DNA of 64,000 nucleotides from the NCBI GenBank assembly GCA_039811705.1, contig JBDHZD010000006.1:690-64689 (forward strand), in the 5' to 3' direction. Origin of the DNA: Fimbriimonadaceae bacterium (GTDB lineage Bacteria > Armatimonadota > Fimbriimonadia > Fimbriimonadales > Fimbriimonadaceae). Below the pieces are notes generated by a model. That model was given only the letters and a program-made list of their open reading frames with translations, was not told where the DNA came from and ran no database searches. The position numbers and the translations under genes are program-made. Shown one piece after another: positions 24,969-64,000 of the stretch (the stretch's first letter is position 1; each line of letters opens with the position of its first letter).

Positions 24969-26042
24969 TCATTGTGCGCTCGTCCGCCTGCCTGCCACCC
25001 GGGATTCGATTTCGGAAAGTCCAGCGACCATGGGTCGGTGATCAGCCTCGATCAGAACTAGGACCGGACTGTGCCGAATGCCCAACCGCCGCGCCCAGGC
25101 TGTTTCTTCCTTCACCACTGACTCGAGAGACGTGTCAAAAGGGATCCCCATCTCATCCAACAACCGCTGCGAACGGGTTGCGCCGACACCCTGCTCGGCG
25201 AGCACCCCCCTGAGCCATGGTTCAAGTTTCCCCCTGCGATGCGCGGACTCCAGGTGGACCGCGATGTCCAGGTCCTGTCGCCCAAGAGCCAACAGGTTGT
25301 GGCGAAACACGATCCTGAACCCAGCGCCAGAATCGCGCAGTTTGAACAGGCGGTCGAGAGCCTCCCTGCAGGCAGGACACGAGAGTTCGCCAACCACAAC
25401 AACGGTCCGGCCCGAGTCTTCTCCGCCCACCGAGGGGCGTTCGTGACCGACGATACTGTCCGGCGGCATCGAAGCGATCGTTTTCTCAAGTTCAAGGTGT
25501 GTATCCCATAGGCGCAAAGGATCGATGGCCAGGACCAACGACAAACCCACACCCGCCAACAGCGCCACCGGCTGCTGCCAAGGCCGTCGGACCTGTGGTT
25601 CGGGTTCACCCAGGCAACCCTCTATTCCGTGAGCCACCAACAGGAGGCACCAGGTCAGCGCCGACGCCAAGCACCATGCGCAGGTCGTCCGCAACGTACT
25701 CACCGAGTACAACGTCAGCAAGAAGCTGGCCAATGTACCGGTGCCAGACAAAACGTAAGAAGCCAAGCGACACGATTCGCATCGACCGCCCACGACGAGT
25801 CTGGCGTTCGTTGCGAACAGAGCGACGTAAGCCCCGAGTCCCCAGAAAGCGACAGGCACGCCCAGCACGGCACTCCACCGGCTTCGCAGAACTTGGAGAC
25901 AACCTTCTCCGGAACGGCAGACAACGGGAACCAGCCCGGCCGCGTGCAGACTCAAGTAGAGCGTCACGAACAAACCGACTGAACTCAACACCAACCTGAC
26001 CCAAGTCCAATCGACTCGCTTCCATAAAGAAAAACTGAACAA
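24969..26042 (-). CDS. VKOR-family membrane thiol oxidoreductase fused to a DsbA/thioredoxin-like domain
   Basis: Loop Cys pair VVCRSGEGC, TM CxxC (TCAWCL), and C-terminal domain with SCPACREAL. The likely start is TTG 26042, 9 nt after AAGGAGG. The tracked start is TTG 26063. Confidence 0.8.
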   Translation of the reverse strand: MFSFSLWKRVDWTWVRLVLSSVGLFVTLYLSLHAAGLVPVVCRSGEGCLQVLRSRWSAVLGVPVAFWGLGAYVALFATNARLVVGGRCESCRLASYVLSGTGTLASFLLTLYSVSTLRTTCAWCLASALTWCLLLVAHGIEGCLGEPEPQVRRPWQQPVALLAGVGLSLVLAIDPLRLWDTHLELEKTIASMPPDSIVGHERPSVGGEDSGRTVVVVGELSCPACREALDRLFKLRDSGAGFRIVFRHNLLALGRQDLDIAVHLESAHRRGKLEPWLRGVLAEQGVGATRSQRLLDEMGIPFDTSLESVVKEETAWARRLGIRHSPVLVLIEADHRPMVAGLSEIESRVAGRRTSAQ

Positions 26043-26056
26043 TTTTCGGATCCTCC

Positions 26057-26085
26057 TTGACAATGCGGAATAGACCTGATAGACT
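26057..26085 (+). promoter_or_regulatory. Sigma70-type promoter TTGACA-N17-TAGACT for the 26129-28101 operon
   Basis: TTGACA at 26057-26062, 17-nt spacer, TAGACT at 26080-26085. The RBS GAGGAG lies 8 nt before ATG 26129. Confidence 0.45.
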
Positions 26086-26128
26086 ACCGGAACTGGTCTC
26101 TACGAAAAGAGACATGAGGAGACGTCAT

Positions 26129-26257
26129 ATGAAAAAATGGTGGAACGCGATCGTCGCACTCTTGGCGGTCGGTCTTGGGGCTACGATGATCCTGTCATCG
26201 ACCGCATTCGCCTCGAACCCAGAGGAGCAGTGCGACGAGAATCCCGGCGGAAATTGA
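26129..26257 (+). CDS. Small exported peptide precursor (42 aa; predicted 14-aa mature part SNPEEQCDENPGGN)
   Basis: GAGGAG RBS. MKKWWNAIVALLAVGLGATMILSSTAFA|SNPEEQCDENPGGN has a classic n-h-c signal with an AFA cleavage site. Confidence 0.5.
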   Translation: MKKWWNAIVALLAVGLGATMILSSTAFASNPEEQCDENPGGN

Positions 26258-26261
26258 GGCC

Positions 26262-26681
26262 GTGTCCGGTTGGACTCGGCGACTTGCTGCGCTCTTGATC
26301 GCGATTGGTTCGGTGACATTTCTCTATGGGGCCGCCCTTGAGAGTTCCGAACATCCATTCGTCTTGAGCGGAGAACCAAGCGACCTAGGCGTGATCGATG
26401 GAGATCAACTTCTCGAAAGCACAGTGGACGTGTGGAATGTGCGTCATCGGCATCTGGAACTTGAAATCGTTCTGTCTGGATGCGGGTGCGATGACCGCAG
26501 CATACAGGTGATCGATGTGCCGCCCTTCAGCCGCCGTTCGTTCACTCTGGTCACCGATCCCAGCCGTTTGCCCGTCGGCAGGCAATCGTCCTCGATTCGC
26601 TTTCGCGGGCTCATCGGCAACGAACCCTTTGAAACGCATCACCAGTATTGGTTCACTGTCCAACGGCGCATCACCGATTGA
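26262..26681 (+). CDS. DUF1573-like membrane-anchored Ig-fold protein
   Basis: N-terminal TM segment (RRLAALLIAIGSVTFLYGAAL). DLGVIDG...LELEIVLSGCGC...FTLV pattern matches the DUF1573 SCGC motif. Confidence 0.65.
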   Translation: MSGWTRRLAALLIAIGSVTFLYGAALESSEHPFVLSGEPSDLGVIDGDQLLESTVDVWNVRHRHLELEIVLSGCGCDDRSIQVIDVPPFSRRSFTLVTDPSRLPVGRQSSSIRFRGLIGNEPFETHHQYWFTVQRRITD

Positions 26682-26707
26682 GCCAAGGTGAGCCCGCCAC
26701 AGAGATC

Positions 26708-27079
26708 ATGAAACAGAACAAACCTCTCTACGCTTCGGCCGTCATCGGTCTGCTGGCAACGTGTCTCGCCATGAGCGTCACGGAAACGTATGCCGGCATC
26801 TGTCAAAAGTGCAAGTATGGAACGAAGGTCGTGAAGACCTCGTGCCCCAGTGCGTGCACCAACCCAGTCATCTGCTACCAGGCTACGATCACCGACTACA
26901 CGTGTGAAACCGAACTCTGGAAGCGCTGCGACATCGCTGGCTCGTCGGGGATGTACTCGTCAGAACAGGGACAGTGCGCTCAAACCGGATCGGGTTGCGT
27001 ATGCAGTATGTACGGAAGCGGCATCTTCACAAATCTGCCATGGCCGGATGAAGTATGTGTAACAAGCAACATGCTCTAA
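26708..27079 (+). CDS. Cys-rich secreted protein (123 aa, about 14 Cys)
   Basis: I trimmed the ORF to MKQNKPLYASAVIGLLATCLAMSVTETYAG (signal or lipobox-like LATC). The mature part is ICQKCKYG...SCPSAC...VICY...YTCE...KRCD...GQCAQ...GCVCS...EVCV. Confidence 0.6.
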   Translation: MKQNKPLYASAVIGLLATCLAMSVTETYAGICQKCKYGTKVVKTSCPSACTNPVICYQATITDYTCETELWKRCDIAGSSGMYSSEQGQCAQTGSGCVCSMYGSGIFTNLPWPDEVCVTSNML

Positions 27080-28101
27080 TCTCTCTTCTCGCAGTTCTCG
27101 CGCTGGCAGAATCGGCGAAAGCAGACGCTTGGGTGTATCGGGTCACCTTCACGACGCCACCCGTCGAAGACCCCAGGTCTCCCGAAAAGGAAGCGAGCGA
27201 CACGTCCAGGGCCCTTCGGCTCGCCGGAGTGCGCAAGGACACCGTGGACAACAATCGCGCGTTTCTGGTTCGCGCCGCGCAAGAGGCCAGGAAGGGTCGA
27301 ACCATTGAGGGCAGGGCCATGGTCGCCGTCGGCGATGGATGGTTGGTTTCAGAGCATCCCGCTCCCGTCCTCGGCGCCGGTGAGTGCACCGAAAAGCAGG
27401 TCTACCGCAATGGTGCGTCCATGTTCTGGATCGAGGGCGAGAACATCGTGCGCGTGTTCCCCGATCAGCGTCTGTCCATTGTCGGCTCTATCGCAAGCCA
27501 GTATGTGCTCGGACGGCGGTTTGCCGAGAAGGCAGAGGTCGTGCAGAAAGTGTCGGGCGGACTCCCCGTGGACAGCTATTCAGTTGCCGTGAAGGCGTTC
27601 GAACTTGACCCGTACCAAGCCAGGATGGATGTTCATTACGCCGATGCTAAGCGCTCCAAGGTGTCCCGGGTCGAGTTCCACCGCGAGTTCATCGACAAAT
27701 CCTGGTTCTTGAACGAACGTTACGACCTGACCGACGGCGAGATCACGGATGGCAAGTTGTCCTTCGCCAAAGTTCGCTTGAGGCGCTTTCGTCCGGACGG
27801 CGCTTTGGCTCAGGAGTTAGTGTATACACCCGAATCGCGACTTGAAGACGGCGCCGTCGACATGAACCTCGGCATTCCCATGGGCACCCACGTTCTTGAC
27901 AAACGGCTGGGCGAGGAAGTCCCCTACGAGTGGAATGGCGAGTGGCTCGACCTCGACGCCCTGAGAGCCGTCCAACAAAGCGAAGCGCCGCAAGCCAAGA
28001 TCCACGCGAACACGTTCGCGCTCAAGCCGTGGCACTATGGTGTCGGGCTCGTCGCCTTTGGAGCGGGCGTGGCCTACCTTGGACGCCGCCGACGCGCCTG
28101 A
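27055..28101 (+). CDS. Secreted protein with C-terminal TM segment plus Arg-cluster tail
   Basis: Signal peptide MCNKQHALISLLAVLALAESAKADA. Extreme C-terminus LKPWHYGVGLVAFGAGVAYLGRRRRA. Confidence 0.7.
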   Translation: MCNKQHALISLLAVLALAESAKADAWVYRVTFTTPPVEDPRSPEKEASDTSRALRLAGVRKDTVDNNRAFLVRAAQEARKGRTIEGRAMVAVGDGWLVSEHPAPVLGAGECTEKQVYRNGASMFWIEGENIVRVFPDQRLSIVGSIASQYVLGRRFAEKAEVVQKVSGGLPVDSYSVAVKAFELDPYQARMDVHYADAKRSKVSRVEFHREFIDKSWFLNERYDLTDGEITDGKLSFAKVRLRRFRPDGALAQELVYTPESRLEDGAVDMNLGIPMGTHVLDKRLGEEVPYEWNGEWLDLDALRAVQQSEAPQAKIHANTFALKPWHYGVGLVAFGAGVAYLGRRRRA

Positions 28102-28173: not shown

Positions 28174-29883
28174 ATGCCCGTCGGCAGATTCCTGCTGTGC
28201 CTCCACTCGCACATGCCCTATGTGCTCTCGCACGGCAAGTCGCCGCACGGCACCGACTGGATCAACGAAAGCGCGGCCGAGTGCTACCTGCCCATCCTCC
28301 ACGCCCTCGATAGGCTGCTGCAACAGGACATCCGGCCGCGCTGGACGATCAACCTCACGCCAATCCTCGCCGAGCAACTCGACGATCCAGCGTTCAAGGA
28401 CGGCTTCGAAGACTACTGCCAGTCCAAGATCGACTTCGCCATCGCCGACCAAAGACGCTTCCAAATCGAGGGGCCTTTGTGGATGGAGGGCCTCGCCCAC
28501 ATGTGGCAGCGGTGGTACACGCGTCAGCTTGTCCAATTCAAACACCAGTGGGGCCGCTCGATCTGCGAGGGCTTCCGCTTCTTTCAGGAGCAAGGGAGCA
28601 TCGAGATCATCACGTGCGGCGCGACCCACGGCTATCTCCCCCTGTTGGCCACCGAAGAGTCCGTCCAGGCCCAAGTCAAGCTGGCCGTCTCCAGCCACAC
28701 CAAGCGCTTCGGCAAGCCCCCGCGCGGCATCTGGCTCCCAGAGTGCGCCTACCGCCCGGCCTATGCCTGGAAGTCGCCCGTCGCCGACGAGGAACCTTGG
28801 GCGCGCAAGGGCGTCGAGCATTTCCTCAAGGAGAACGGCCTCGAGTACTTCTTCGTGGATTCCCACATGATCCGTGGCGGCGCGCCGCTCGGCACCTACG
28901 CGGGCAAGTTCCCCCAGCTCGCCGAGCTGTTCGCCCGAAGCGCCAAGTACTTCACGCCGCCCCCCGAGGAGCGCAGCGAGTACGAACGCTACGCCCTGCC
29001 GAACGGCGTGCAACTCTACGCCCGCGACCCCGAGACCACGGTCAAGGTGTGGTCGGGAGACCACGGATACCCCGGCGACGCCCGCTACCTTGAGTTCCAC
29101 AAGCAGCTGTATCCGGGACGCTTGCGCTACTGGGCGATCAGCGAAGACAAACGAGACCTTGGCGCCAAGCGACCCTACAACCCCTGGGAAGCCTACGAGC
29201 AGATCCCGAACCACGCCGAGGACTTCGTCCAGACCCTGAAAGGCACGCTGGCCCACTACAAAGGCACCAAGGACAAGGTCGGGACGCTTGTCGCGATGTA
29301 CGACACCGAATTGTTCGGGCATTGGTGGTGGGAGGGACCCGAGTTCCTCTACGAATGCGCCCTCCGTATGCACAACGACCCCGACCTACAGTGTGTCACG
29401 GGAGGCGAACTACTCGACCTCGAGCCGCCCGCCGCGACGATCACCCTCCCCGAAGGCTCGTGGGGCGAAGGCGGCTATCACTTCGTATGGCTCAACGAGG
29501 ACAACGCATGGACGTGGCCCAAACTCCATGCGGCGCAAAAGTCCATGATCGGCATCGCCCAAGAATGCCGCACCGGCCTGGCCAAGCGCATCGCCGAACA
29601 ATGTGCCCGCGAACTCCTGTTGGCGGAAGCCTCCGACTGGCAGTTTCTCATCTCGACGCAATCCGCGCGCGACTACTCCGAGGTCCGATTCGACGACCAT
29701 ATCGAACGCTTCGGTCGGCTCGCCGACCTTGCCCGCCGCGTCTTGGACGGCGCGACGCTCACTCTGGGAGAACAGGCGTTCCTTGAGGATTGCGAGCAGA
29801 AAGATGCCCCATTTCCCGAGATCGACCTCGACTACTGGGCCCATCTGGACCAAACGCTAGGCAGCGAAATCCACCTCGGATAG
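28174..29883 (+). CDS. GH57-family 1,4-alpha-glucan branching enzyme
   Basis: CLHSHMPYV, HGTDWINESAAECYLPIL, and WLPECAY are typical GH57 motifs. 569 aa. TACAAT sits 5 nt upstream of the ATG. Confidence 0.9.
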   Translation: MPVGRFLLCLHSHMPYVLSHGKSPHGTDWINESAAECYLPILHALDRLLQQDIRPRWTINLTPILAEQLDDPAFKDGFEDYCQSKIDFAIADQRRFQIEGPLWMEGLAHMWQRWYTRQLVQFKHQWGRSICEGFRFFQEQGSIEIITCGATHGYLPLLATEESVQAQVKLAVSSHTKRFGKPPRGIWLPECAYRPAYAWKSPVADEEPWARKGVEHFLKENGLEYFFVDSHMIRGGAPLGTYAGKFPQLAELFARSAKYFTPPPEERSEYERYALPNGVQLYARDPETTVKVWSGDHGYPGDARYLEFHKQLYPGRLRYWAISEDKRDLGAKRPYNPWEAYEQIPNHAEDFVQTLKGTLAHYKGTKDKVGTLVAMYDTELFGHWWWEGPEFLYECALRMHNDPDLQCVTGGELLDLEPPAATITLPEGSWGEGGYHFVWLNEDNAWTWPKLHAAQKSMIGIAQECRTGLAKRIAEQCARELLLAEASDWQFLISTQSARDYSEVRFDDHIERFGRLADLARRVLDGATLTLGEQAFLEDCEQKDAPFPEIDLDYWAHLDQTLGSEIHLG

Positions 29884-29886
29884 CTC

Positions 29887-30273
29887 CTAGTGGATCGTTT
29901 CCACGGGCTCGCTCAGCAGCACGGCGTAGCCGTCCGGATCGGCAACCAAAAACGTGCGCTCTCCCCACAGGGCGTTCTGCAAGCCGCGCAACACGTGGAA
30001 TCGGCTGAGTTCGATGGTCTTTGCCAGTTCGGCCAAGCCACTCACCATCAGGTTGATGACCAGTCCACCGCTCCGGTCGAGGGCAGGGTTCTGCTCATGC
30101 TTGGGCTGTTGGAGCAAGAGAATCTCGGCCGTTCCCGCCACGAGGCGGGCGACGCGATGCCCATCCCAAGTGTCGGTAGACGCCACACGCAAGCCCAGGA
30201 CGCCGGAATAGAACTCCAGCGAGCGATCCAAATCCGCGACGTCCAAGATGAGTTTCGATAGAGTGCCGCCCAT
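29887..30273 (-). CDS. VOC/glyoxalase-family protein
   Basis: I trimmed the ORF to MGGTLSKLILDVADLDRSLEFYSGVLGL, the beta-alpha-beta-beta-beta module start. Confidence 0.8.
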   Translation of the reverse strand: MGGTLSKLILDVADLDRSLEFYSGVLGLRVASTDTWDGHRVARLVAGTAEILLLQQPKHEQNPALDRSGGLVINLMVSGLAELAKTIELSRFHVLRGLQNALWGERTFLVADPDGYAVLLSEPVETIH

Positions 30274-30322
30274 GGCGCAGTTTCCTATGGGCGATTGATT
30301 CGCCGCCTCCTGCGGCCCTCCT

Positions 30323-30961
30323 TTATCTTGGGTCGCTCCCGCCACGATCTTCTGGGCGTCCGGTTCGCCAAATGCGTTCCATGTCGTCCCATGTGGCGAG
30401 CGGTTCGTCCAGATCTTGTCTGGTCAGTCCCGTGATGCCAAGGGCCTCCAGAACGGGTCGATCCTGTCGCAGACCCGCCAGCCGGCCCTCAGCGGTCGGT
30501 TCGACGGGACCATGTGGCGCTGTCCGGCGCCAATCCAGATCCCAGGCGCGCACGACATGTTGCATGAGGCGGCACTTCGGACCATGGTCGGTCGGCTCGA
30601 CTGAAAACATGAGAACCGCTTCCATGCCATTGCCTTTCCAATGCACCCTCGCGACGCCTTGCGCTCCCAGAGCAAACACCTGGGTTTCTATCGTGGGATC
30701 GAGAGCGCTCCACGCCTTGGCGCGAGGCACAACCAGTTCGCGAATCAACCGCTCGGCGCCAGACGGTTCAAGACCCAGCCGCTTCAGTTCGTCCGGATCC
30801 GTGTACGCCGCAAGCGTCGCCGCATCTCCAGCGACGAAGGCCTCGGCGATTCGAAGCGCATGGTGGTCGAGCCCCGGGGGCCGCTGGATGGCCGCGACCC
30901 AGGTCGCGGCCAAACCGAGCACGGCCAAAGCGGCCCATCCGAACGGGATCAGCCTTCGCAA
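30323..30961 (-). CDS. Membrane-anchored hypothetical protein (212 aa), last gene of the 32335-30323 operon
   Basis: Candidate TTG start at 30961 gives MRRLIPFGWAALAVLGLAATWVAAIQ. It overlaps the upstream stop by 13 nt. The start call is uncertain. Confidence 0.5.
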   Translation of the reverse strand: MRRLIPFGWAALAVLGLAATWVAAIQRPPGLDHHALRIAEAFVAGDAATLAAYTDPDELKRLGLEPSGAERLIRELVVPRAKAWSALDPTIETQVFALGAQGVARVHWKGNGMEAVLMFSVEPTDHGPKCRLMQHVVRAWDLDWRRTAPHGPVEPTAEGRLAGLRQDRPVLEALGITGLTRQDLDEPLATWDDMERIWRTGRPEDRGGSDPR

Positions 30962-31230
30962 GTCCCACCGCTGCAGAAGAGTCCCGGGAAGTAGCGCTTG
31001 TAGCGGATCGTCACCGGATTGTTGCCGCAAAAGGCCGGCGTGCTCTCGCACATGCAACAGCCGCCAGCGGCCGGGTTGTAGCACGCGAACGAGGACGGCC
31101 CGTACTCGGTGGGCGAGCAGTTGTCCGTGCTCACGCATGCATCGGGTGCAAAGCCCCAGTTGCAGGGGTAGGGAGAGGCCAGTACGGCACAGCCGACGAG
31201 CGTGGCGAGGAGGAGTCTCTTCAGTTTCAT
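30949..31230 (-). CDS. Cys-rich lipoprotein (93 aa, 12 Cys)
   Basis: MKLKRLLLATLVGC has the lipobox LVGC. The mature part is PYPCNWGFAPDACVSTDNCSP...FACYNPAAGGCCMCE...AFCGNN...LFCSGGTCEG. The ATG forms an ATGA overlap with the upstream stop. Confidence 0.65.
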   Translation of the reverse strand: MKLKRLLLATLVGCAVLASPYPCNWGFAPDACVSTDNCSPTEYGPSSFACYNPAAGGCCMCESTPAFCGNNPVTIRYKRYFPGLFCSGGTCEG

Positions 31231-31793
31231 GGTTCTCCTTGTGCGCGCTCCCACCATCGCAGGTCGCCCCAGTCGCCGCGTTGGGTGCGCGTGACCAGAG
31301 AACCGCCGACGGTGACGCCGAACGCGTGTTTGGTCGTTTGGGGAGCGTGCAAATCGGTGGTGGCCGTCTTGTGGTTGATGTCGACGACTTCAATGGCGGC
31401 GGAATGGACGCGGGCCACGTGGGCGGCAAAGTCGGTCCGTGGTGTCGCCGGCTGCCGATCGACGGCCATCAGGATGTAGCCGATGGCTCCGGGGTTCTGG
31501 ATGTATTCGTTCGGTGTTCGCGGGCAATGCAGCAGTCGAGGGTCGAGCTTGTCGCGCACGGCAAACGTTAGGAACGGGGGATATCCCATCGCGACGGCCG
31601 AACCCTCGGTCGCCCCGCCGTGGTCCTCGCGGTAGATCGCCAGCGCCAAATGCACCTGGCGGAGGTTGTTGACGCAGTTGCTCTGCCGACCACGCTCCAC
31701 AACGCCAAGAAGGACGGGCGACAGGAGGGCGGCCAGCACTCCTACGATCGCCGCCACCGCAAGCAACTCGGCCAAAGTGGCCCCGCGCTTCAC
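31227..31793 (-). CDS. Prepilin-type N-terminal cleavage/methylation protein (DUF1559-like pseudopilin)
   Basis: MKRG|ATLAELLAVAAIVGVLAALL (G at -1, E at +5), followed by RGRQSNCVNNLRQVHLALAIYREDHGG. Confidence 0.8.
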   Translation of the reverse strand: MKRGATLAELLAVAAIVGVLAALLSPVLLGVVERGRQSNCVNNLRQVHLALAIYREDHGGATEGSAVAMGYPPFLTFAVRDKLDPRLLHCPRTPNEYIQNPGAIGYILMAVDRQPATPRTDFAAHVARVHSAAIEVVDINHKTATTDLHAPQTTKHAFGVTVGGSLVTRTQRGDWGDLRWWERAQGEP

Positions 31794-32335
31794 GAGCGAT
31801 CCCCCAGCGGCAGGTTGGGATCGTCGATAGGGGTCTGCTGGAACGCGGCGAGCCGCCCGTCTGCCTCAAGCAGGTGGCTCCGGGGCACGAACCGAGGAGC
31901 CAAAGATGCGGTCAACGACCCGTCTTCATCGGCGTAAAGGTGGGCGGGCTCGGGAACGCGGTCGCGCCAACGCGCCACTTCCCCTCGCGATCCTTGTACC
32001 ACCACGACGACTCGCGAGTACGACCTGGGGTCGATGCGCTCCAAGGGCCGAAGGGGCTCGGCGCTGCATGTCGAGCACGCGCCCGCCAGAACGACGAGCA
32101 ACGGGCCGGAAGGGCGATCCCCCAAATAGCGATCTGCCCGCAACTCGACCCGACCGCCGACTGCCGGGTCCGGCAAGACCGACGGACGCGCCTGCTCGAG
32201 ACGCCACGCCTCGGAACGCGCCGAAGCGATGTGCCCAAAGCCAAACACCAAACCCGCCGACAGAACGGCAGAGGCCGCCAACGCAACAGCTCCGGAGGTT
32301 GCACCACACTTCATCATGAGTACTATAGTACTCAC
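31790..32335 (-). CDS. Membrane-anchored TlpA/ResA-like thioredoxin-fold protein (CSTC)
   Basis: TM segment AVALAASAVLSAGLVFGFG. PLLVVLAGACSTCSAEPL is a CxxC motif in Trx context. The tracked start is GTG 32335. ATG 32317 or 32314 is likely if the transcript is leaderless. Confidence 0.6.
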   Translation of the reverse strand: MSTIVLMMKCGATSGAVALAASAVLSAGLVFGFGHIASARSEAWRLEQARPSVLPDPAVGGRVELRADRYLGDRPSGPLLVVLAGACSTCSAEPLRPLERIDPRSYSRVVVVVQGSRGEVARWRDRVPEPAHLYADEDGSLTASLAPRFVPRSHLLEADGRLAAFQQTPIDDPNLPLGDRS

Positions 32336-32351
32336 TACTTGCGTCTGTCAA
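32322..32351 (-). promoter_or_regulatory. Sigma70-type promoter TTGACA-N18-TATAGT placed 4 nt upstream of ATGATG (leaderless-type)
   Basis: The minus strand reads TTGACA (32351..32346), an 18-nt spacer, TATAGT (32327..32322), ACTC, then ATGATG (32317..32312). Confidence 0.4.
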
Positions 32352-32372
32352 GCCTCCGGAGGCTCTTTTTTT
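32351..32372 (+). terminator. Palindrome AGCCTCCGGAGGCT followed by CT7 (terminator geometry on the plus strand)
   Basis: 14-nt perfect palindrome at 32351-32364, then CTTTTTTT. It sits between the pntB stop (32385) and the module promoter. The U-tract is on the strand opposite to both flanking genes. Confidence 0.4.
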
Positions 32373-32384
32373 CGAATAGCCCTG

Positions 32385-33782
32385 CTAGTGCGCGTCCAAC
32401 GCGGCGGTGATCTTGCCGATCGTCGCCTTGGCGTTGCCAAACACCATCACGGTGTTGTCGTTCAGGAACAGGTCGTTCTCGACGCCTGCGAATCCCGCGC
32501 CCATGCCGCGCTTGCTCACGATGACCGTCTTGGCCTTGTCCACATCCAAAATCGGCATGCCGTAGATGGGACTCTGGGGGTCGGAACGGGCCGCCGGGTT
32601 GACCACGTCGTTCGCACCGATGACCAGCGCCACGTCCGTCTCAGGGAACAGCGGGTTGATCTGCTCGAGTTCGTACAGGTCCTCGTAGGGCACGTCGGCC
32701 TCGGCCAGCAACACGTTCATATGACCCGGCATGCGCCCCGCCACGGGGTGAACGGCGTACTTCACGTCGATGCCCATGGCCCGCAACTTGGCCGCCATCT
32801 CCTTCACCTGGTGCTGCGCTTGAGCGACAGCCATGCCGTATCCGGGCACCACCACCACCGACGACGCATTCTCCATCAGAATCGCCGCATCCTCGGGGGA
32901 GAACGACTTCGGCTGTTTGGCCACCTTGTTGGAAGATCCGCTCGACAGCACCATGCCGGTCGAGGAGAACAGCACGTGCCCCAGCGTCCGGTTCATGGCG
33001 ACGCACATCTGCAGCGTCAGGATGAGACCGCTCGCGCCGACCAGCGCACCGCCGATGAGCAGCGACGTGTTGAGCAACACGAAGCCCGCCAAGCCCGCAG
33101 CACAGCCCGTGAACGAGTTGAGCAACGAGATGACCACGGGCATGTCTGCACCGCCGATCGGTGAAACCGCCGAGATGCCGAGCACGAGCGAAAGCACCAT
33201 CAGCGTGATGAACGCCGCGGGAGTCACCAAACCGAAGAACAGGATCATGGCCGCCAGCGCCAGCGTGAACGCCGCCAACAGCAGGTTCACCGTCGAGTGG
33301 CCCTTGAAGGTCAACGGGCGGCCGGGCAACAGTTCCTGCAGCTTGCCATACGCGATCAAGCTGCCCGAGAAGCTGATCGTGCCGATGATGGCCGAAAGCA
33401 CCGTGGTCACGCGCTGGACGGTGTCGGGAGTTTGGTGGTGCCCGTTGACCGCGGCGAGAAACTCGAACAAGGCGACCAAGGCCACCGCGCCGCCACCCAG
33501 CCCGTTCAGCAATGCGACCATCTGCGGCATGGCCGTCATCTGCACGCGATAAGCCGCCATCAGGCCGCCGATGGTGCCCACCACGACCGCACCCGCGATC
33601 CAGACCAGGTTCTCCGGCTTGATGTCGGGGTTGAAGAACGTGGCGCCGATCGCGATGGCCATACCCAGCATCGCAAGCTGGTTGCCCTTGCGCGCCGTGC
33701 GCGGCGAGTTCATCAGCTTCATCGCGAGGATGAAGCACACCGCACCCGCCAAGTAGGCGATGTCGATGAATTCCTTGTTCAT
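32385..33782 (-). CDS. pntB: NAD(P) transhydrogenase subunit beta
   Basis: 465 aa, multi-TM N-terminus, and C-terminal dIII domain (PGYGMAVAQAQH, HPVAGRMPGHMNVLLAEA). Confidence 0.95.
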   Translation of the reverse strand: MNKEFIDIAYLAGAVCFILAMKLMNSPRTARKGNQLAMLGMAIAIGATFFNPDIKPENLVWIAGAVVVGTIGGLMAAYRVQMTAMPQMVALLNGLGGGAVALVALFEFLAAVNGHHQTPDTVQRVTTVLSAIIGTISFSGSLIAYGKLQELLPGRPLTFKGHSTVNLLLAAFTLALAAMILFFGLVTPAAFITLMVLSLVLGISAVSPIGGADMPVVISLLNSFTGCAAGLAGFVLLNTSLLIGGALVGASGLILTLQMCVAMNRTLGHVLFSSTGMVLSSGSSNKVAKQPKSFSPEDAAILMENASSVVVVPGYGMAVAQAQHQVKEMAAKLRAMGIDVKYAVHPVAGRMPGHMNVLLAEADVPYEDLYELEQINPLFPETDVALVIGANDVVNPAARSDPQSPIYGMPILDVDKAKTVIVSKRGMGAGFAGVENDLFLNDNTVMVFGNAKATIGKITAALDAH

Positions 33783-54337: not shown

Positions 54338-54601
54338 ATGGCCCGAATGCGCTCCACGTCCCAAGCCGTCTCCATCAGCGTCGCCAGTACGATCACCGGC
54401 GTCGAAGTCCATACCCTGCGCTATTGGGAAAAGGAGTTCGACGCGTTCTTGAACCCCGAGCGAACCCGCGGCGGCCAACGGCGCTACCGGCCCGAAGACA
54501 TCCAGACCGTCTTCGCCATCAAACAGCTTCTCCGCGACGAGATGTTCTCCATCGCCGGGGCGCGCAAGCATCTGGAGCGCACCCACCGGCACGCCGCGTG
54601 A
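54338..54601 (+). CDS. Small MerR-family HTH regulator
   Basis: ITGVEVHTLRYWEKEFD...GGQRRYRPEDI is a MerR-type HTH plus wing. 87 aa. Confidence 0.8.
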   Translation: MARMRSTSQAVSISVASTITGVEVHTLRYWEKEFDAFLNPERTRGGQRRYRPEDIQTVFAIKQLLRDEMFSIAGARKHLERTHRHAA

Positions 54602-56739: not shown

Positions 56740-57141
56740 GTGAGACTCAAGCTGGAAGCCGTTGTCGTCTTCGGTGGGGTTTTGGCGAGCTTTGCGCTGG
56801 CGATTCCACCAAGTCCTTGTGTGCCGCCAAATCTATGTCCGGAGTGAGTGTGGTCCCAGAATGGACAAGGTTGCGGGCCGACCTCAGTCATCGAAACGGT
56901 GAACACCAACCAGAATGTGAACCTGAAGTACTGCACGAAGCGCAACCCAGAGTTCCACGGGTGTCCGGTTCCCGTAGGCCAATGCAACGAAGAAGAGTGG
57001 TGGTACTACACCAAGGCTGAGATTCGATGCGTGAACCAAACCACGGGCGCGTATACCGTGGTTGGAACGTGTGCTTGGGCCGTGTTGAGTAGAACGAAGT
57101 CCGGCCACATGTGTCCGGCGTGCTTGGAACCCGTGGAGTAA
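56740..57141 (+). CDS. Cys-rich secreted protein whose signal peptide (56740-56844) is separated from the mature domain (tracked ORF 56848..57141) by an in-frame TGA
   Basis: The same frame reads GTG-MRLKLEAVVVFGGVLASFALAIPPSPCVPPNLCPE-TGA(56845-56847)-VWSQNGQGCGPTS... The downstream part has 10 Cys and no signal peptide of its own. Confidence 0.5.
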
Positions 57142-57145
57142 ATGG

Positions 57146-57727
57146 ATGCGCAGAACGGTCATAATACGCGGGTGGACTTTGGTCGAGGTTCTTGGTGTCG
57201 CCATGATCTTGGCTGTCTTGGCGGGCATCGTTGCGCTCGTCGCTGGGCCCCGCATGAAGCGGTCGGCAACCGTCGCCGAGGCTGGCAACCACCTTCGCCA
57301 GCTTTCGTTCGCGCTCAACCTCTACATGAACGAGCACGACGGATTGCCGCCGAGGACGATCGAGCCGTTGCTGAGCGGCCTCCCGGCTCGGGACCCGCTT
57401 GGAGGTTCGTGGCTCTACTCCTGGGTTCGGTTCACTCCCGACCGTGAAGGAATTGACTTCGCCGACTATGGCTTCGAAATCGGCAAAGACGCTGTCTTTC
57501 GCTGCTCCCGAGTCCACAACCATCGAGGCAAGGTCGAAACCCTGGTAATGCGCGTTGACGGACATCCGCCGATCGTGCAACATGTGCCCATCCTGGATGC
57601 GGGCCAGAAACTTGGCCTGCTTGGGTCTCGTTTGGATGGCAGTGTCGGCTGGTTCCCCTCGCCTCCCAATTGGGAACTGGCCCTGCCCCAAGGCCAAGAC
57701 GACCCGAACAATCCCGGACGGCGCTGA
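57146..57727 (+). CDS. Prepilin-type N-terminal cleavage/methylation protein (DUF1559-like pseudopilin)
   Basis: MRRTVIIRG|WTLVEVLGVAMILAVLAGIV (G at -1, E at +5), then AEAGNHLRQLSFALNLYMNEHDG. It starts 4 nt after the upstream stop. Confidence 0.8.
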   Translation: MRRTVIIRGWTLVEVLGVAMILAVLAGIVALVAGPRMKRSATVAEAGNHLRQLSFALNLYMNEHDGLPPRTIEPLLSGLPARDPLGGSWLYSWVRFTPDREGIDFADYGFEIGKDAVFRCSRVHNHRGKVETLVMRVDGHPPIVQHVPILDAGQKLGLLGSRLDGSVGWFPSPPNWELALPQGQDDPNNPGRR

Positions 57728-59191: not shown

Positions 59192-59641
59192 ATGGCGCGG
59201 CGCAAGCCGGAGGAATGGATCTGGCAGGTCGGCACCGAGCTGCAGCGGCTCGGCCACGAGATGATTCGCATGGGCCCGACTCTGGCGCGGAAGCTTTGGG
59301 AACCCCGGATCGACGTTCTTGAATCCGCACACGGCTTCCACATCCGGTGCGAGGTGGCTGGGGTCCGTGGCGACGACATCTCGGTGACCTTCAATGCCGA
59401 GCAACAAGTGATGACGATTCGAGGCCACCGGCGCGAGGAAGACCCCGATACCGGAGACCAGGTCGCTTGTCACCAACTTGAAATCTTCTACGGCGAGTTC
59501 GAGCGAGACGTGCCTCTGCCGCTCGACTACCTTGAACTCGCCGAAACGCGAGCCCAGTACCGCAACGGCGTTCTCACCATCTGCGTACCGAAGAAGGTTG
59601 GAATCTCTCGGAAGCGCGCGGTTGCAGTGCGCGGTGCGTAG
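59192..59641 (+). CDS. Hsp20/alpha-crystallin small heat-shock protein
   Basis: ACD core FHIRCEVAGVRGDDISVTF...FERDVPLP...AQYRNGVLTICVPKK. Confidence 0.9.
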   Translation: MARRKPEEWIWQVGTELQRLGHEMIRMGPTLARKLWEPRIDVLESAHGFHIRCEVAGVRGDDISVTFNAEQQVMTIRGHRREEDPDTGDQVACHQLEIFYGEFERDVPLPLDYLELAETRAQYRNGVLTICVPKKVGISRKRAVAVRGA

Positions 59642-59731
59642 ACACACACACGTTTGCTCAGGACGATCGGCCCATGCAGGAGGTTGGCTCCATGCGTCGA
59701 AACGTCATCATGAACGAAGCAACATATCCCC

Positions 59732-62161
59732 ATGTCCGATGTCAAGCCCCTTACCCTAGACGAACTCGACGACCTCGAACTCGAGGTGGAGTCAACGGGC
59801 GGGGAGGCGTCGGACGAGGGACGCAAGCCCGAAGTCCCGAACGAACTCAACATCCTCCCTCTCCGGGATTCGGTGATCTACCCGATGCTCATCGCGCCGC
59901 TCAGCGTTGGGCGAGAGTCGGGAGTGCAACTCATCGACGAGTCGGTCGTGGGCAACAATCGCGTCATCGGCGTGGTCGCCCAGCGTGCACCACAGATCGA
60001 CAGACCTGACTTCGACGACGTGTTCGACCACGGTTGCGCCGTGATCGTGCGAACGTTGGTCAAGCTCCCGGACGGGGTTCGATTGATCGTTCAGGGCGTG
60101 TCCCGCTTCCGCATCGTGGAGCGGTTGCAGGAGCACCCCTACCTGCGCGCAAAGGTCGAAGTGCTCGAAGAGCCCGACACACCCGAGGACAAGAGCGAGG
60201 AAATCGAGGCCCTGCGCCGCTCGATCTCGTCCCTGTTCGAACAGGCCATCCGCCTCTCGCCCACGCTGCCCGAAGAGTTGCGCAGCCTGACGCAAACCGT
60301 CCAAGAAACGAACGTCATGGCCGACCTCGTCGCGGCGCACATGACACTGACCGTCGAAGAAAAGCAAGCGATCCTCGAAGAAGTCAATCTCGAAAAGCGC
60401 CTTCGCAAACTGCTGGAGTTCCTCAGCAAGGAAGTCCGCGTACTCGAACTCACGTCGAAGGTTCAAAGCGAAGTCAACACCGAGCTCAGCAAGAGCCAGC
60501 GAGACTACTACCTGCGCGAACAACTGCGAGCCATCCAGCGCGAGCTCGGCGAAACCGACGACCGCGCGGAAGATCTGGAAGAACTCCAGGAGAAGATCGA
60601 TGCCGCCCAAATGCCCGAGGAGGCGCTGAAGGAAGTCCACCGCGAGTTCGAGCGGCTAAAGCGAATGTCGCCCGGCGCGCCGGAATACACAGTCGCGCGC
60701 ACCTACGTGGACTGGATGGTCAGCATCCCTTGGTCGAAGTTCACCGAAGACATTCTCGAGTTGTCCCGGGTCAAAGACGTTCTGGACGCCGACCACTACG
60801 GCCTGGAGAAAATCAAAGACCGCATCCTCGAGTTCTTGGCCGTTCGCAAAGTCAAGACCGACGGCAAGATCCGCCAGCCCATCCTGTGCTTCTCGGGCCC
60901 TCCGGGAGTCGGCAAAACATCGCTGGGCCGGTCGATCGCCCATGCCATGGGCCGCAAATTCATCCGTATCTCCCTCGGCGGAATGCGGGACGAAGCCGAA
61001 ATCCGCGGTCACCGTAGAACGTACATCGGGGCTCTCCCGGGCCAGATCGTTCAGGGTCTGCGAAGGTGCGAGAGCCGCAACCCTGTCTTCATGCTCGACG
61101 AAATCGACAAGCTGGGCAACGACTTCCGTGGCGACCCCTCGTCTGCTCTGCTCGAAGTGCTCGACCCCGAACAGAACAGCGCCTTCCGAGACCACTACAT
61201 CGACGCGCCGCTCGATCTGAGCAATGTCTTCTTCATCACGACGGCCAACCGCCTGGACACCATCCCGCCGCCACTGCGCGACCGCATGGAGATCATCGAG
61301 CTCGGCGGCTACACCGAGGAGGAGAAGACCCAGATCGCCATCCGACACCTGATTCCAAAACAGATTGCCGAGCACGGGTTGAAGAAGTCCCAGATCGCGT
61401 TCAAAGAAGACGCGATCCACGCCTTGGTGCGTTTCTACACTCGCGAGGCGGGCGTTCGGAACTTGGAGCGCGAGATCGCCAGCGTGGTCCGCAAGGTGAC
61501 CAGGCAAGTCGCCGAGGGACGAACGTCGAAGCTGACCGTGACCAAGAAGTTCCTCGAAACCGCCTTGGGTGCGCCGCGCCATCAGTACGAGGAAGTGCTT
61601 GAGCGCGATATGAAGCCGGGCACGTCCGTCGGCCTGGTGTGGACCCCCGTGGGCGGCGACATCGTGTTCATCGAGACCGCCCTGCTTCCCGGCTCGAAGG
61701 GGCTGATCCTGACCGGCCAACTGGGCGACGTGATGAAGGAGTCGGCCATGGCCGCGCTCTCCTACCTGCGCAGCAGAGCCGCCAAGTTGGGCGTGGACCC
61801 GAAGGTCTTCGTGGACAACGAACTCCATATCCACGTGCCCGCCGGCGCCGTGCCGAAAGACGGGCCGAGCGCGGGCATCACGATCATGGTGGCTCTCGCC
61901 TCCTTGCTTACGGGTCGGGCCGTGGCGCCGCGGCTGGCAATGACCGGCGAGATGACCTTGCAAGGCCAAGTGTTGCCCGTCGGAGGCATCAAGGAGAAGG
62001 TGCTGGCCGCTCACCGTGCGGGCGTGACCACGCTGCTCCTCCCCGATCGCAACCAGAAGGACTTTCTTGAGGACGTGCCCAAGGAAGTGCGCGACCAACT
62101 GACGGTGCACTTCGTCAAGGACGCCGATCAGGTGCTGCGGTTGGCTCTGCCGAAGGGCTAG
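59732..62161 (+). CDS. lon: ATP-dependent Lon protease
   Basis: LON N-domain (LPLRDSVIYP), Walker A GPPGVGKTS, protease Ser site PKDGPSAGIT. 809 aa. Confidence 0.95.
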   Translation: MSDVKPLTLDELDDLELEVESTGGEASDEGRKPEVPNELNILPLRDSVIYPMLIAPLSVGRESGVQLIDESVVGNNRVIGVVAQRAPQIDRPDFDDVFDHGCAVIVRTLVKLPDGVRLIVQGVSRFRIVERLQEHPYLRAKVEVLEEPDTPEDKSEEIEALRRSISSLFEQAIRLSPTLPEELRSLTQTVQETNVMADLVAAHMTLTVEEKQAILEEVNLEKRLRKLLEFLSKEVRVLELTSKVQSEVNTELSKSQRDYYLREQLRAIQRELGETDDRAEDLEELQEKIDAAQMPEEALKEVHREFERLKRMSPGAPEYTVARTYVDWMVSIPWSKFTEDILELSRVKDVLDADHYGLEKIKDRILEFLAVRKVKTDGKIRQPILCFSGPPGVGKTSLGRSIAHAMGRKFIRISLGGMRDEAEIRGHRRTYIGALPGQIVQGLRRCESRNPVFMLDEIDKLGNDFRGDPSSALLEVLDPEQNSAFRDHYIDAPLDLSNVFFITTANRLDTIPPPLRDRMEIIELGGYTEEEKTQIAIRHLIPKQIAEHGLKKSQIAFKEDAIHALVRFYTREAGVRNLEREIASVVRKVTRQVAEGRTSKLTVTKKFLETALGAPRHQYEEVLERDMKPGTSVGLVWTPVGGDIVFIETALLPGSKGLILTGQLGDVMKESAMAALSYLRSRAAKLGVDPKVFVDNELHIHVPAGAVPKDGPSAGITIMVALASLLTGRAVAPRLAMTGEMTLQGQVLPVGGIKEKVLAAHRAGVTTLLLPDRNQKDFLEDVPKEVRDQLTVHFVKDADQVLRLALPKG

Positions 62162-62895: not shown

Positions 62896-63354
62896 ATGCC
62901 GACCCTCGACGACTACGCGCCGTTTGCCCCGTTCACCCTTGACGAACTGGTCACGGCCGCCAACCGCTTGCTGGCCGGGTCCGCGACCGAAGAGATTCGG
63001 GAGCGCACGGTGCGCTACTACATCGCTGAAAGACTGTTGCCCCCGCCCATCTCCGGTGGCAAGAACGCTCGGTACGGTCTCGAGCACCTGCGCAGGCTTG
63101 TCGCAATCCGAACCTGGCTCGGCGAGGGAATCGGTTTGGCGGAGGCCAAGGCACGCTTGGGCGTCGCCCAAGATGCCGCGTTTCGAGGCTTGGCGGCCCC
63201 ACACCTGGGAGATCAGGCGACTGTGGTCCACAGGATCCGCCTCACCGACCGGAGCACTCTGGAGATCGATGGAGATCGGATTCAGGCGTCAGACCTAGAC
63301 CAGGCGATTGAAGCCCTCCGGGATCTTCGTCGCAATTTTCGCGACAGCCATTGA
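62896..63354 (+). CDS. MerR-like HTH protein
   Basis: ERTVRYYIAERLLPPP...YGLEHLRRLVAIRTWL resembles a MerR HTH plus dimerisation helix. 152 aa. Confidence 0.55.
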   Translation: MPTLDDYAPFAPFTLDELVTAANRLLAGSATEEIRERTVRYYIAERLLPPPISGGKNARYGLEHLRRLVAIRTWLGEGIGLAEAKARLGVAQDAAFRGLAAPHLGDQATVVHRIRLTDRSTLEIDGDRIQASDLDQAIEALRDLRRNFRDSH

Positions 63355-63386
63355 CACTGTCTACTACTGGTGTATACTGTCGCATC

Positions 63387-64000
63387 ATGAGTGTTGCGAT
63401 CACCCGACTCCCGAACCTCGACGTCAACGCGACCGCCCACGAAGACCCCGCCCAGCGGCTTCTTCTGTTGCGCTTCACCGCTGCACAAGCACCCGACACG
63501 TGGCGCGAAAAGCCCATGAAGGTCGCCCTCGTCATCGATCGCAGCGGCTCGATGGATGGCGAGAAGATCGAGATTGCCCGCGCCGCGGCGGGCCGATTCA
63601 TCCGCTCACTCGGACCCGACGACCTCGTCTCGTTGGTCGCATACGACAGCCATGTGGACTCCCTCGCCCCGCTCGCTCCTCCTTCCGAGGCGGTTGCACT
63701 CCTCGCCGAGCGCATCCACGCTCGAGGTTCGACCGATCTCTACGCGGGTTGGCTCGCCGGCGCCAAGTCCGTCGGGCGAGGCGGTCGAGTCATCCTCCTC
63801 TCCGATGGCCAAGCGAACCAGGGCCGATTCCAAGACGCTGGGAGCCTGATGCAACAGGCGGCCCGCTCCTACCAAGAGTTCGGCGTGACCACGAGCACGA
63901 TCGGCGTCGGTGCGGACTACGACGAGGGCATCATGGCCGGCATGGCGAAAGCCGGAGCCGGGGCCCACTACTTCGCCCGTGATGCGGGCGCGATCATGGA
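63387..64000 (+). CDS. von Willebrand factor A (VWA) domain protein, 3' end outside window (not in the ORF track)
   Basis: I translated it manually from ATG 63387. It reads MSVAITRLPNLD...KVALVIDRSGSMDG (MIDAS DxSxS)...LVAYDS...GSTDLYAG...ILLSDGQAN, and the frame stays open to 64000. Confidence 0.8.
   Translation, partial: MSVAITRLPNLDVNATAHEDPAQRLLLLRFTAAQAPDTWREKPMKVALVIDRSGSMDGEKIEIARAAAGRFIRSLGPDDLVSLVAYDSHVDSLAPLAPPSEAVALLAERIHARGSTDLYAGWLAGAKSVGRGGRVILLSDGQANQGRFQDAGSLMQQAARSYQEFGVTTSTIGVGADYDEGIMAGMAKAGAGAHYFARDAGAIM

Follow-up and report, generated by a model that had tools for sequence, protein, structure and literature searches.

A conserved four-gene cassette for a pseudopilin-like and a cysteine-rich protein in Fimbriimonadaceae, with its promoter inside a predicted hairpin

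Do four overlapping genes for a thioredoxin-like, a pseudopilin-like, a cysteine-rich and a membrane-anchored protein form one functional unit, and if so, what does that unit do? The question is raised by locus B (30,323 to 32,351, minus strand), which lies in a 64,000-nucleotide (nt) stretch of DNA from a Fimbriimonadaceae bacterium (Armatimonadota; GenBank assembly GCA_039811705.1, contig JBDHZD010000006.1, positions 690 to 64,689) that we call the window. Comparison of the locus with its orthologues supports the view that the four genes are one functional unit. We read this unit as a lineage-specific envelope operon that would handle or fold the disulfide-rich protein g3, a functional reading to which we give about an even chance. 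The genes, named g1 to g4 in the direction of transcription, are as follows:

31790..32314 (possible starts 32317 and 32335), minus strand: g1, 174 amino acids, with an N-terminal signal or anchor, CSTC at residues 80-83 and a conserved Pro144
31227..31793, minus strand: g2, GTG start, 188-amino-acid pseudopilin-like protein whose class III signal peptide reads MKRG/ATLAE (slash, predicted cleavage site)
30949..31230, minus strand: g3, 93-amino-acid exported cysteine-rich protein with the N-terminus MKLKRLLLATLVGC
30323..30961, minus strand: g4, TTG start, 212 amino acids; a transmembrane anchor at the N-terminus precedes an alpha+beta domain that is probably NTF2-like

The cassette is flanked by pntB (32385..33782) and a glyoxalase-family gene (29887..30273), and its gene content and the coupling of its reading frames are seen directly in the sequence. 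The features given for it in the original prediction, an earlier reading of this DNA, were found in place, two small corrections aside. That prediction had the genes chained by ATGA overlaps and by one overlap of 13 nt: the 4-nt overlap of g2 and g3 (31230/31227) does read ATGA, and the 13-nt overlap of g3 and g4 is borne out when g4 starts at TTG 30961, but the 4-nt overlap of g1 and g2 (31793/31790) reads GTGA (cgctcGTGAagc). Starting g4 at TTG 30961 keeps its full hydrophobic anchor; the same position is likewise a TTG in two other lineages and an ATGA-overlapping ATG in contig L007. Later starts at 30928 and 30922, chosen by automatic gene callers (199-201 amino acids), truncate the anchor and were rejected. 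Shine-Dalgarno-type motifs precede g2, g3 and g4 (GGGGGA, AAGGAGAA and GGTGGG, respectively), and all four proteins carry an N-terminal signal or anchor segment.

Conservation and distribution of the cassette

The order of the four genes and their site (pntAB, then g1 to g4, then the glyoxalase gene) are identical in four Fimbriimonadaceae lineages: the window group (L001-L006); L007-L009; L010 with L013-L018 and L026; and L019-L023 with L025 and L033. Identity to the window proteins across these lineages is 68-74% for g1, 84-88% for g2, 75-81% for g3 and 61-65% for g4. The ratio of nonsynonymous to synonymous substitution rates (dN/dS) lies between 0.07 and 0.27 for all four genes at a synonymous divergence (dS) of ~0.8-1.9, which indicates purifying selection, and we therefore take g1 to g4 to be real genes under constraint. 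The most conserved of them is g2 (dN/dS 0.07-0.11), with g3 at 0.13-0.21 and g1 at ~0.2.

A distant contig of 66.5% GC (L024) encodes orthologues of all four proteins in the same order, at identities of 29% for g1, 46% for g2, 38% for g3 and 31% for g4. This distant cassette is, in our view, the strongest evidence that the four genes would work jointly. Because order and site are kept in four lineages and all four genes recur in L024, g1 to g4 appear to be functionally linked; the original prediction had argued for such a link and had proposed the synteny search in related genomes that now bears it out. The competing explanation, that unrelated genes adjoin by chance or that open reading frames were mis-called, draws on the fact that g1, g3 and g4 belong to no recognised family. 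It is contradicted by synteny persisting down to 29-46% identity, by purifying selection on all four genes and by the overlap of their reading frames; its probability is negligible, and on the sequences compared we regard chance adjacency as excluded.

Word-indexed searches of 5.8 billion protein clusters returned only 4-6 clusters of homologues each for g1, g3 and g4 (six for g4). A full scan of 1.84 billion cluster representatives with a g3 profile hidden Markov model retrieved the protein's own family and the L024 copy (P0010); one further match, P0009, was a repetitive false hit. Carriers of g2 number 2 among 185,579 GTDB species representatives, and g2 profile scans of genomes and metagenomes added these two species, one more contig and generic DUF1559-type proteins (a further match, L036, was spurious). 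Named relatives are metagenome-assembled genomes labeled "Fimbriimonadaceae bacterium" and "Chthonomonas sp. UBA2387 / AMX-MBFR-81" (Armatimonadota). The g1 to g4 families thus appear to be very narrow, essentially orphans beyond these orthologues.

As a separate observation, the ~900 nt upstream of the distant cassette (L024:118-1014) are apparently non-coding and hold many CAACCAACC-like motifs and several GC hairpins.

A promoter enclosed in a conserved hairpin

How the four genes may be expressed is suggested by the short interval between pntB and g1, which holds the following features:

32346..32351, minus strand: -35 hexamer TTGACA, invariant in all 8 distinct orthologous sequences, though its pairing partner in the hairpin varies
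32322..32327, minus strand: -10 hexamer TATAGT, 18 nt after the -35 hexamer and 7 nt before the conserved start codon
32285..32367, minus strand: stem-loop of ~83 nt in the sense-strand RNA, between the pntB stop and g1 codon 11, with both promoter hexamers and the g1 start codon inside it
32317..32334, centered on the -10 hexamer: perfect 18-bp palindrome, TGAGTACTA followed by TAGTACTCA, forming the apical hairpin of the stem-loop; a possible operator

The two hexamers match the consensus at 11 of 12 positions and form the sole such site in 2.8 kb, shuffled sequence giving a mean of 0.5 sites. The arrangement TTGACA-N18-TATAGT-N7-ATG/GTG is invariant in all eight distinct sequences from the four lineages, to be set against a synonymous divergence of ~1, and the first 10-11 nt of the N18 spacer vary freely between lineages. 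The conservation of the promoter, like that of the hairpin around it, is a direct observation; what the hairpin does, and where transcription starts, we infer from it.

In the window, four nucleotides (ACTC) separate the -10 hexamer from the doublet ATGATG (32317-32312). The start that aligns in all lineages, as ATG or GTG, is the second of these codons, and the orthologues are called at 174 amino acids. ATG 32314 is accordingly the likely start in our alignment, ATG 32317 is possible, and GTG 32335 is unlikely: its position falls between the two promoter hexamers, two of the four lineages lack it, and an in-frame TGA inside the -35 hexamer shuts the g1 frame upstream. These observations uphold the earlier claim that the first protein is shorter than the one read from GTG 32335. 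Shine-Dalgarno and purine-rich motifs, which g2 to g4 have, are missing ahead of g1, where the 7 nt between the -10 hexamer and the start codon make a Shine-Dalgarno sequence impossible. Since the spacing of promoter and start is invariant and leaves no room for such a sequence, a leaderless transcript is the simplest reading, and the leaderless g1 mRNA of the original prediction is well supported, though not proven.

Leaderless mRNAs are common in Actinomycetota and Deinococcota. The putative g1 promoter resembles theirs in that the -10 hexamer ends 7 nt before ATG or GTG with no Shine-Dalgarno sequence, in a conserved arrangement; it differs in lying within a long conserved hairpin that takes its 3' arm from coding sequence. 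A second promoter of leaderless type, TTGACA-N16-TATACT-N8-ATG (MSVAITRLPNLD...), lies on the plus strand at 63351..63389 and makes the leaderless reading of g1 more plausible. Weaker candidates of this type occur at the starts 10072 and 40898. Leaderless expression of g1 also fits the report that only 25% of genes in Fimbriimonadia are led by a Shine-Dalgarno sequence (PMC10783764).

The hairpin was not part of the original prediction. Its 3' arm consists of g1 codons 4-11, which pair with the segment carrying an A-run and the -35 hexamer. Across the four lineages the minimum free energy is -38 to -43 kcal/mol (z -4.3 to -6.1), compared with about -30 for the antisense strand, and the sense RNA, with its many G-U pairs, is ~8 kcal/mol the more stable. 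RNAalifold and pair counts find 93.9% of cells paired, versus 35-40% in slid controls, and repeat analysis confirms the inverted repeats. When g1 codons 4-11 are recoded synonymously, 98-100% of the recodings pair less well with the distal arm than the actual codons do. At the apex, the palindrome has an invariant 12-nt core (GTACTATAGTAC) and flanks that covary as TGA/TCA, TTG/CAA and TAG/CTA in three lineage groups. No Rfam family matched the hairpin in a search of 29800-32600, which returned only a chance miRNA match. For now we do not take the hairpin for a repeated or mobile element: the window and 36 loci gave no second copy, in a search that covered little of the genome and so has low power.

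The greater stability of the sense strand, with its G-U pairs, points to a role for the hairpin in transcripts that run on from pntB into g1. Such read-through transcripts of pntAB would fold into the ~83-nt hairpin and bury the g1 start codon, and the hairpin would probably end or stabilize the pntAB transcript. The promoter's own transcript, starting inside the structure, would carry only the 3' arm and stay open for leaderless initiation. By silencing or terminating read-through while the leaderless transcript stays open, the hairpin may leave g1 to g4 to be expressed only from their own near-consensus, sigma-70-type promoter. If this is true, a promoter within a hairpin would be a compact insulator for closely packed operons. 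The layout is, besides, a clear candidate system for work on operon insulation and on leaderless initiation, in a phylum in which about a quarter of genes have been reported to be Shine-Dalgarno-led.

This regulatory interval could also be read otherwise: the 18-20 bp palindrome over the -10 hexamer may be an operator bound by a dimeric repressor, the long hairpin being incidental, or the hairpin may terminate antisense transcription. The invariant core of the palindrome, positioned over the -10 hexamer, speaks for an operator. The antisense terminator has in its favor a clean run of 4-8 U, which every lineage carries behind the hairpin on that strand, and a terminator scan match on the plus strand. 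However, the flanks of the palindrome covary rather than being conserved, no regulator gene lies adjacent, the choice of pairing-favoring codons in g1 is left unexplained, and the G-U pairs favor the sense RNA. We consider this alternative somewhat unlikely; it is compatible with silencing of read-through, the two not being mutually exclusive. The A-run of the hairpin may be an UP element. An antisense promoter that would use the palindromic -10 was rejected, as its spacer measures 19 nt and the hexamer resembling a -35 element lacks conservation.

Several observations weigh against the proposed silencing of read-through from pntAB and leaderless expression of g1. The covariation of the hairpin (five pairs changed on both sides) is drawn from four lineages only. 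The sense strand carries after the hairpin only a broken U-tract (GCUGUUGCGUUGG), and because the clean U-run is antisense, a role as pntAB terminator is not established. In the distant cassette of L024, g1 is led by the Shine-Dalgarno motif AGGTGAG and there is no comparable hairpin. Leaderless expression would therefore be confined to the closer lineages, and the regulatory layout does not seem intrinsic to the module.

The four proteins and their possible roles

In the envelope operon that we propose, g3 would be the core product, a small exported protein with five probable disulfides. A membrane-tethered or periplasmic CxxC protein of thioredoxin fold, g1, would form, reshuffle or keep reduced the cysteines of g3 and perhaps also Cys40 and Cys90 of g2. 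Prepilin peptidase would cut g2, which would stay in the inner membrane or join a type II secretion or type IV pilus-like fiber and would partner or present g3; g4 would be a membrane-anchored, NTF2-like binding or scaffolding partner. The overlapping stop and start codons would couple translation of the four proteins, as for a complex.

The protein g3 has 11 cysteines, of which 10 follow the lipobox cysteine in the framework C-x8-C-x5-C-x11-C-x7-CC-x-C-x6-C-x17-C-x4-C; all are invariant in four orthologues, and the ten-cysteine mature framework is common to the L024 copy. The original prediction had correctly noted the lipobox LVGC and the motif GGCCMC but had counted 11 further cysteines, one too many. 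The sequence is rich in proline and aromatic residues, contains GGCCMCES and has no family match in Pfam, NCBIfam or the PDB sequences. Whether g3 is lipidated is uncertain. The lipobox follows a basic n-region and a hydrophobic region, and this N-terminus is invariant in four close orthologues, but the L024 copy (P0010) reads MKLKRLGIGLVLAAFGTAALS/QIEC, an ordinary signal peptide without the lipobox cysteine, and in the window protein a signal peptidase I site, AVLA/S, is an equally good reading. The earlier label "Cys-rich lipoprotein" is thus only partly backed, and g3 may be either a lipoprotein or a signal peptidase I product.

For g1, the evidence consists of a CxxC motif (CSTC in the four lineages, CAEC in L024) and of matches that all stay under the library cutoffs (E 0.006-1.5 overall). 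These include Redoxin at best E 0.019, AhpC-TSA_2 at 0.006, DsbE at 0.038 and PDB entry 3gl3 at 0.11, with weak PDB matches to DsbE, YkuV and a "thioredoxin-like protein." The matches are consistent: across three libraries they align the CxxC and the cis-Pro position, and all fall in the TlpA/DsbE/Redoxin group. We conclude that g1 is probably a TlpA/DsbE-like thioredoxin-fold protein, and the TlpA-like label of the original prediction is to that extent partly backed. The likeness of g1 to TlpA, ResA and DsbE (CcmG) lies in its N-terminal anchor or signal, in a beta-strand that leads into the CxxC, in a conserved proline placed as the cis-Pro and in a domain of comparable size; unlike them, it has an active-site dipeptide without proline (S-T, or A-E in L024), lies in no cytochrome-maturation or Sco context and matches below threshold.

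TlpA keeps ScoI and CoxB reduced in Bradyrhizobium. By this model, g1 could be a reductase of TlpA type and hold the cysteines of a periplasmic, Cys/Met-rich, metal-binding g3 in the reduced state, for example in copper handling; its best matches are in a group whose members are usually reductants, and g3 contains GGCCMCES. Genes for a metal transporter, an oxidase or Sco are, however, missing nearby, the cysteines of g3, a protein rich in proline and aromatic residues, are fixed in a pattern that disulfide-knotted folds typically show, and the pilin-like gene would be left without a role. We consider metal handling very improbable and keep to g3 as the proposed disulfide-rich client of g1.

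The N-terminus of g2 appears to be of genuine pseudopilin type. It consists of MKRG followed by ATLAELLAVAAIVGVLAALL, that is, a short basic leader ending in Gly, a Glu at +5 and a hydrophobic helix of ~20 residues; G4, E9 and the helix are invariant in five orthologues. The score exceeds the cutoff for NCBIfam TIGR02532 (17.0 bits, cutoff 16.3) and falls short of it for Pfam N_methyl (15.9 bits, cutoff 21.2), and the protein matches the GspG N-terminus at E 3.7e-7 and, in a PDB profile search, the N-termini of GspG (5wda) and PilA at E 5e-6. The prepilin-like product with KRG/ATLAELL described earlier therefore has a class III signal peptide, and this pilin-type signal is directly visible. 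Likeness to GspG and PilA stops at residue ~60-75. The globular part, which includes the motif CPRTPNEYI and a C-terminal GDWGDLRWWE, matches nothing searched; Cys40 and Cys90 are invariant.

The segment that follows the helix, R-x-x-C-x-N-L-R-Q-[VI]-x-x-A-x-x-x-Y-x-x-[DE]-[HN]-G and then an "[LY]-C-P" motif, takes in g2 the form C-x-N-L-R-Q...Y-R-E-D-H-G, typical of DUF1559-type pseudopilin expansions. It is shared with the DUF1559 (Pfam SBP_bac_10) and H-X9-DG proteins of Planctomycetota, Verrucomicrobiota and Armatimonadota and with the "Verru_Chthon cassette," which are uncharacterized, as is g2. The nearest relatives of g2 outside the cassette, the metagenome sequences L034 and L035, are of DUF1559 type (34-37% identity over residues 2-99). 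At 188 amino acids g2 is much shorter than the DUF1559 and H-X9-DG proteins: it matches DUF1559 (PF07596) over residues 33-59 only, at E 0.1 and 13.1 bits, below the cutoff of 23.3, and does not match TIGR04294 (H-X9-DG) at E<=1. Verru_Chthon protein D matched only the pilin-like protein of locus C (see below), at E 0.11, and not g2.

These features raise the possibility that the four genes are accessory to a pseudopilus or type IV filament, with g2 as minor pseudopilin, g3 as pilotin-like or tip lipoprotein, g4 as platform accessory and g1 as disulfide supplier. The class III signal peptide, the GspG-like helix and the two invariant cysteines of g2 would fit, as would the lipobox and pilotin size of g3 and the tight coupling of the genes. 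In contrast to GspG and the type IV pilins, the C-terminal part of g2 is unmatched and the machinery is not found alongside: no type II secretion, type IV pilus or prepilin peptidase genes, including those for secretin, ATPase and platform, are among the called genes in the annotated flanks (~10 kb around locus B and ~5 kb around locus C). In addition, g3 and g4 match no known pilus or type II secretion component, and the lipobox is not kept in L024. We consider this assignment distinctly unlikely, and return to an operon centered on g3 for the last of its products.

The AlphaFold2 model of g4 (predicted local distance difference test score, pLDDT, 78.8; predicted template modeling score, pTM, 0.75) shows an anchor followed by an alpha+beta domain. 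Its best Foldseek match is the NTF2-like N-terminal domain of PBP2a (E 8e-3, probability 0.99), with a TM-score of only ~0.3 over ~100-110 columns, and further matches are to ketosteroid isomerases and designed NTF2 folds. Searches of Pfam, NCBIfam and the PDB sequences gave no sequence family and no match. With fair confidence in the modeled fold, the best structural neighbors of the domain are NTF2-like.

A small, anchored g4 of binding-type fold would also suit a secreted toxin or bacteriocin module, in which g3 is a disulfide-stabilized effector, g1 its oxidoreductase, g4 an immunity or binding protein and g2 a help in export across the outer membrane. Small size, export, richness in disulfides and a very narrow distribution without relatives would befit g3 as such an effector, and an oxidoreductase gene shares its operon, as in the sublancin operon sunA-sunT-bdbA-sunS-bdbB, which we take to be an analogue for an oxidoreductase beside a Cys-rich product. 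We nevertheless consider a toxin module quite improbable: the chromosomal position is fixed, with no signs of mobile elements, g3 is under purifying rather than diversifying selection, the cassette has no transporter or peptidase gene, and a PADLOC search gave zero matches for all four proteins.

An operon in which g1 serves g3 and possibly g2 has precedents of another kind. In Bacillus subtilis, BdbDC supplies the disulfides needed by the ComGC pseudopilin. BdbA/BdbB (sublancin) and BdbDC-ComGC resemble the module proposed for locus B in that an oxidoreductase gene is co-transcribed with a secreted Cys-rich product and disulfides are linked to a pseudopilin. They differ in that no sequence relationship exists, the host here is diderm and the client would be a 79-amino-acid, ten-cysteine protein.

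Against an envelope operon of this kind stand, besides the missing pilus machinery, the results for the individual proteins. Among g1 to g4, only the pilin signal domain of g2 reaches a curated family threshold. For g1, the comparison of its family with Escherichia coli TrxA by hhalign was not significant, and the AlphaFold2 model, built from a four-sequence alignment, has a pLDDT of 44.5 and is unusable. All biochemical roles, including the action of g1 on g3 and the interaction of g2, g3 and g4, are what we infer from these comparisons.

Literature searches on DUF1559 with prepilin, on H-X9-DG and on Armatimonadetes with prepilin found nothing relevant. Each component resembles a known kind (pseudopilin, thioredoxin-like, NTF2-like), and in the literature searched we did not find their combination or the promoter-in-hairpin layout described. 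Pilin-like genes without known role abound in Armatimonadota, Planctomycetota and Verrucomicrobiota, and the operon at locus B offers a testable hypothesis for some of them. If true, the module would be the first functional handle on the very large DUF1559-type pseudopilin expansions. Its immediate impact is modest because the operon occurs in just a few uncultured species, a very narrow range, and its function is a proposal.

Cysteine-rich proteins beside probable thiol oxidoreductases at loci C and A

A second pilin-like gene in the window belongs to locus C, which the original prediction took to be a paralogous arrangement with a different oxidoreductase type. It comprises:

56740..57141, plus strand: cysteine-rich secreted protein, with 10 cysteines in the mature part behind a signal peptide; interrupted in this strain by an in-frame TGA at 56845-56847
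57146..57727, plus strand: pseudopilin-like protein, homologous to g2 only over the N-terminal ~60-65 residues
57727..58536, plus strand: membrane protein of 269 amino acids with 4 predicted transmembrane segments and the CxxC motifs CSEC, CPWC and CAPC

Pairwise comparison, which the prediction had suggested, does find homology between the two prepilin-like proteins (BLASTP E 4e-8, hhalign E 1e-10), limited to the first ~60-65 residues and thus to the generic pilin helix. The same comparison detected no similarity between the cysteine-rich proteins of the two loci. Neither g1 nor g4 has a counterpart in locus C, the redox proteins and fourth genes are unrelated, and the gene order differs. 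Because homology is limited to the pilin-like N-termini and the order is different, the claim of paralogy does not hold, and we read locus C as an analogue of locus B.

The analogy has some breadth. A strict search motif, G-x-[TS]-x-x-E, picks out exactly two pilin-like genes in the window. Each adjoins one gene for a membrane CxxC protein and one for a small secreted protein whose mature part holds 10 cysteines. The CAPC of the locus C membrane protein belongs to a thioredoxin-type WTECAPC motif in its C-terminal segment. This protein had no match in Pfam, NCBIfam or the PDB sequences; VKOR (PF07884) was not matched, nor was any Pfam family at E<=1. It may be a new DsbB/VKOR-like disulfide-generating protein. 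The cysteine-rich gene is an intact open reading frame for a 134-amino-acid secreted protein, with GGA (Gly) at the position of the TGA, in L027, L028, L031 and L032; the window strain, L029 and L030 have TGA instead, which is either a strain-level pseudogene or a polymorphism.

Locus A (24969..28101) adds a VKOR-thioredoxin fusion on the minus strand (24969..26063; PF07884 at E 2.6e-16, with a thioredoxin-like SCPAC domain) and, on the plus strand at 26708..27079, a secreted protein of 123 amino acids with 12 cysteines and no family. A Cys-rich protein thus stands beside a membrane thiol oxidoreductase at three loci (A, B and C) in the 64-kb window. It may be that Fimbriimonadaceae have a recurrent envelope module, in which a pseudopilin-like protein carries or presents a disulfide-knotted protein that has a private thiol oxidoreductase, with B and C as instances, A as a pilin-less one, and the promoter-in-hairpin insulator besides; we regard so broad a scheme as unlikely. 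The plus strand of locus A also encodes a 139-amino-acid anchored protein and a 348-amino-acid protein with a signal peptide and a C-terminal transmembrane/RRRR tail.

Locus C lies between a MerR-family gene (54338..54601) on one side and genes for HSP20 and Lon protease (59192..62161) on the other, a stress-response neighborhood that might bear on its regulation. A second MerR-family gene on the HSP20 and Lon side was seen in L027 only (10103-10561), at a place beyond the part of the window examined.

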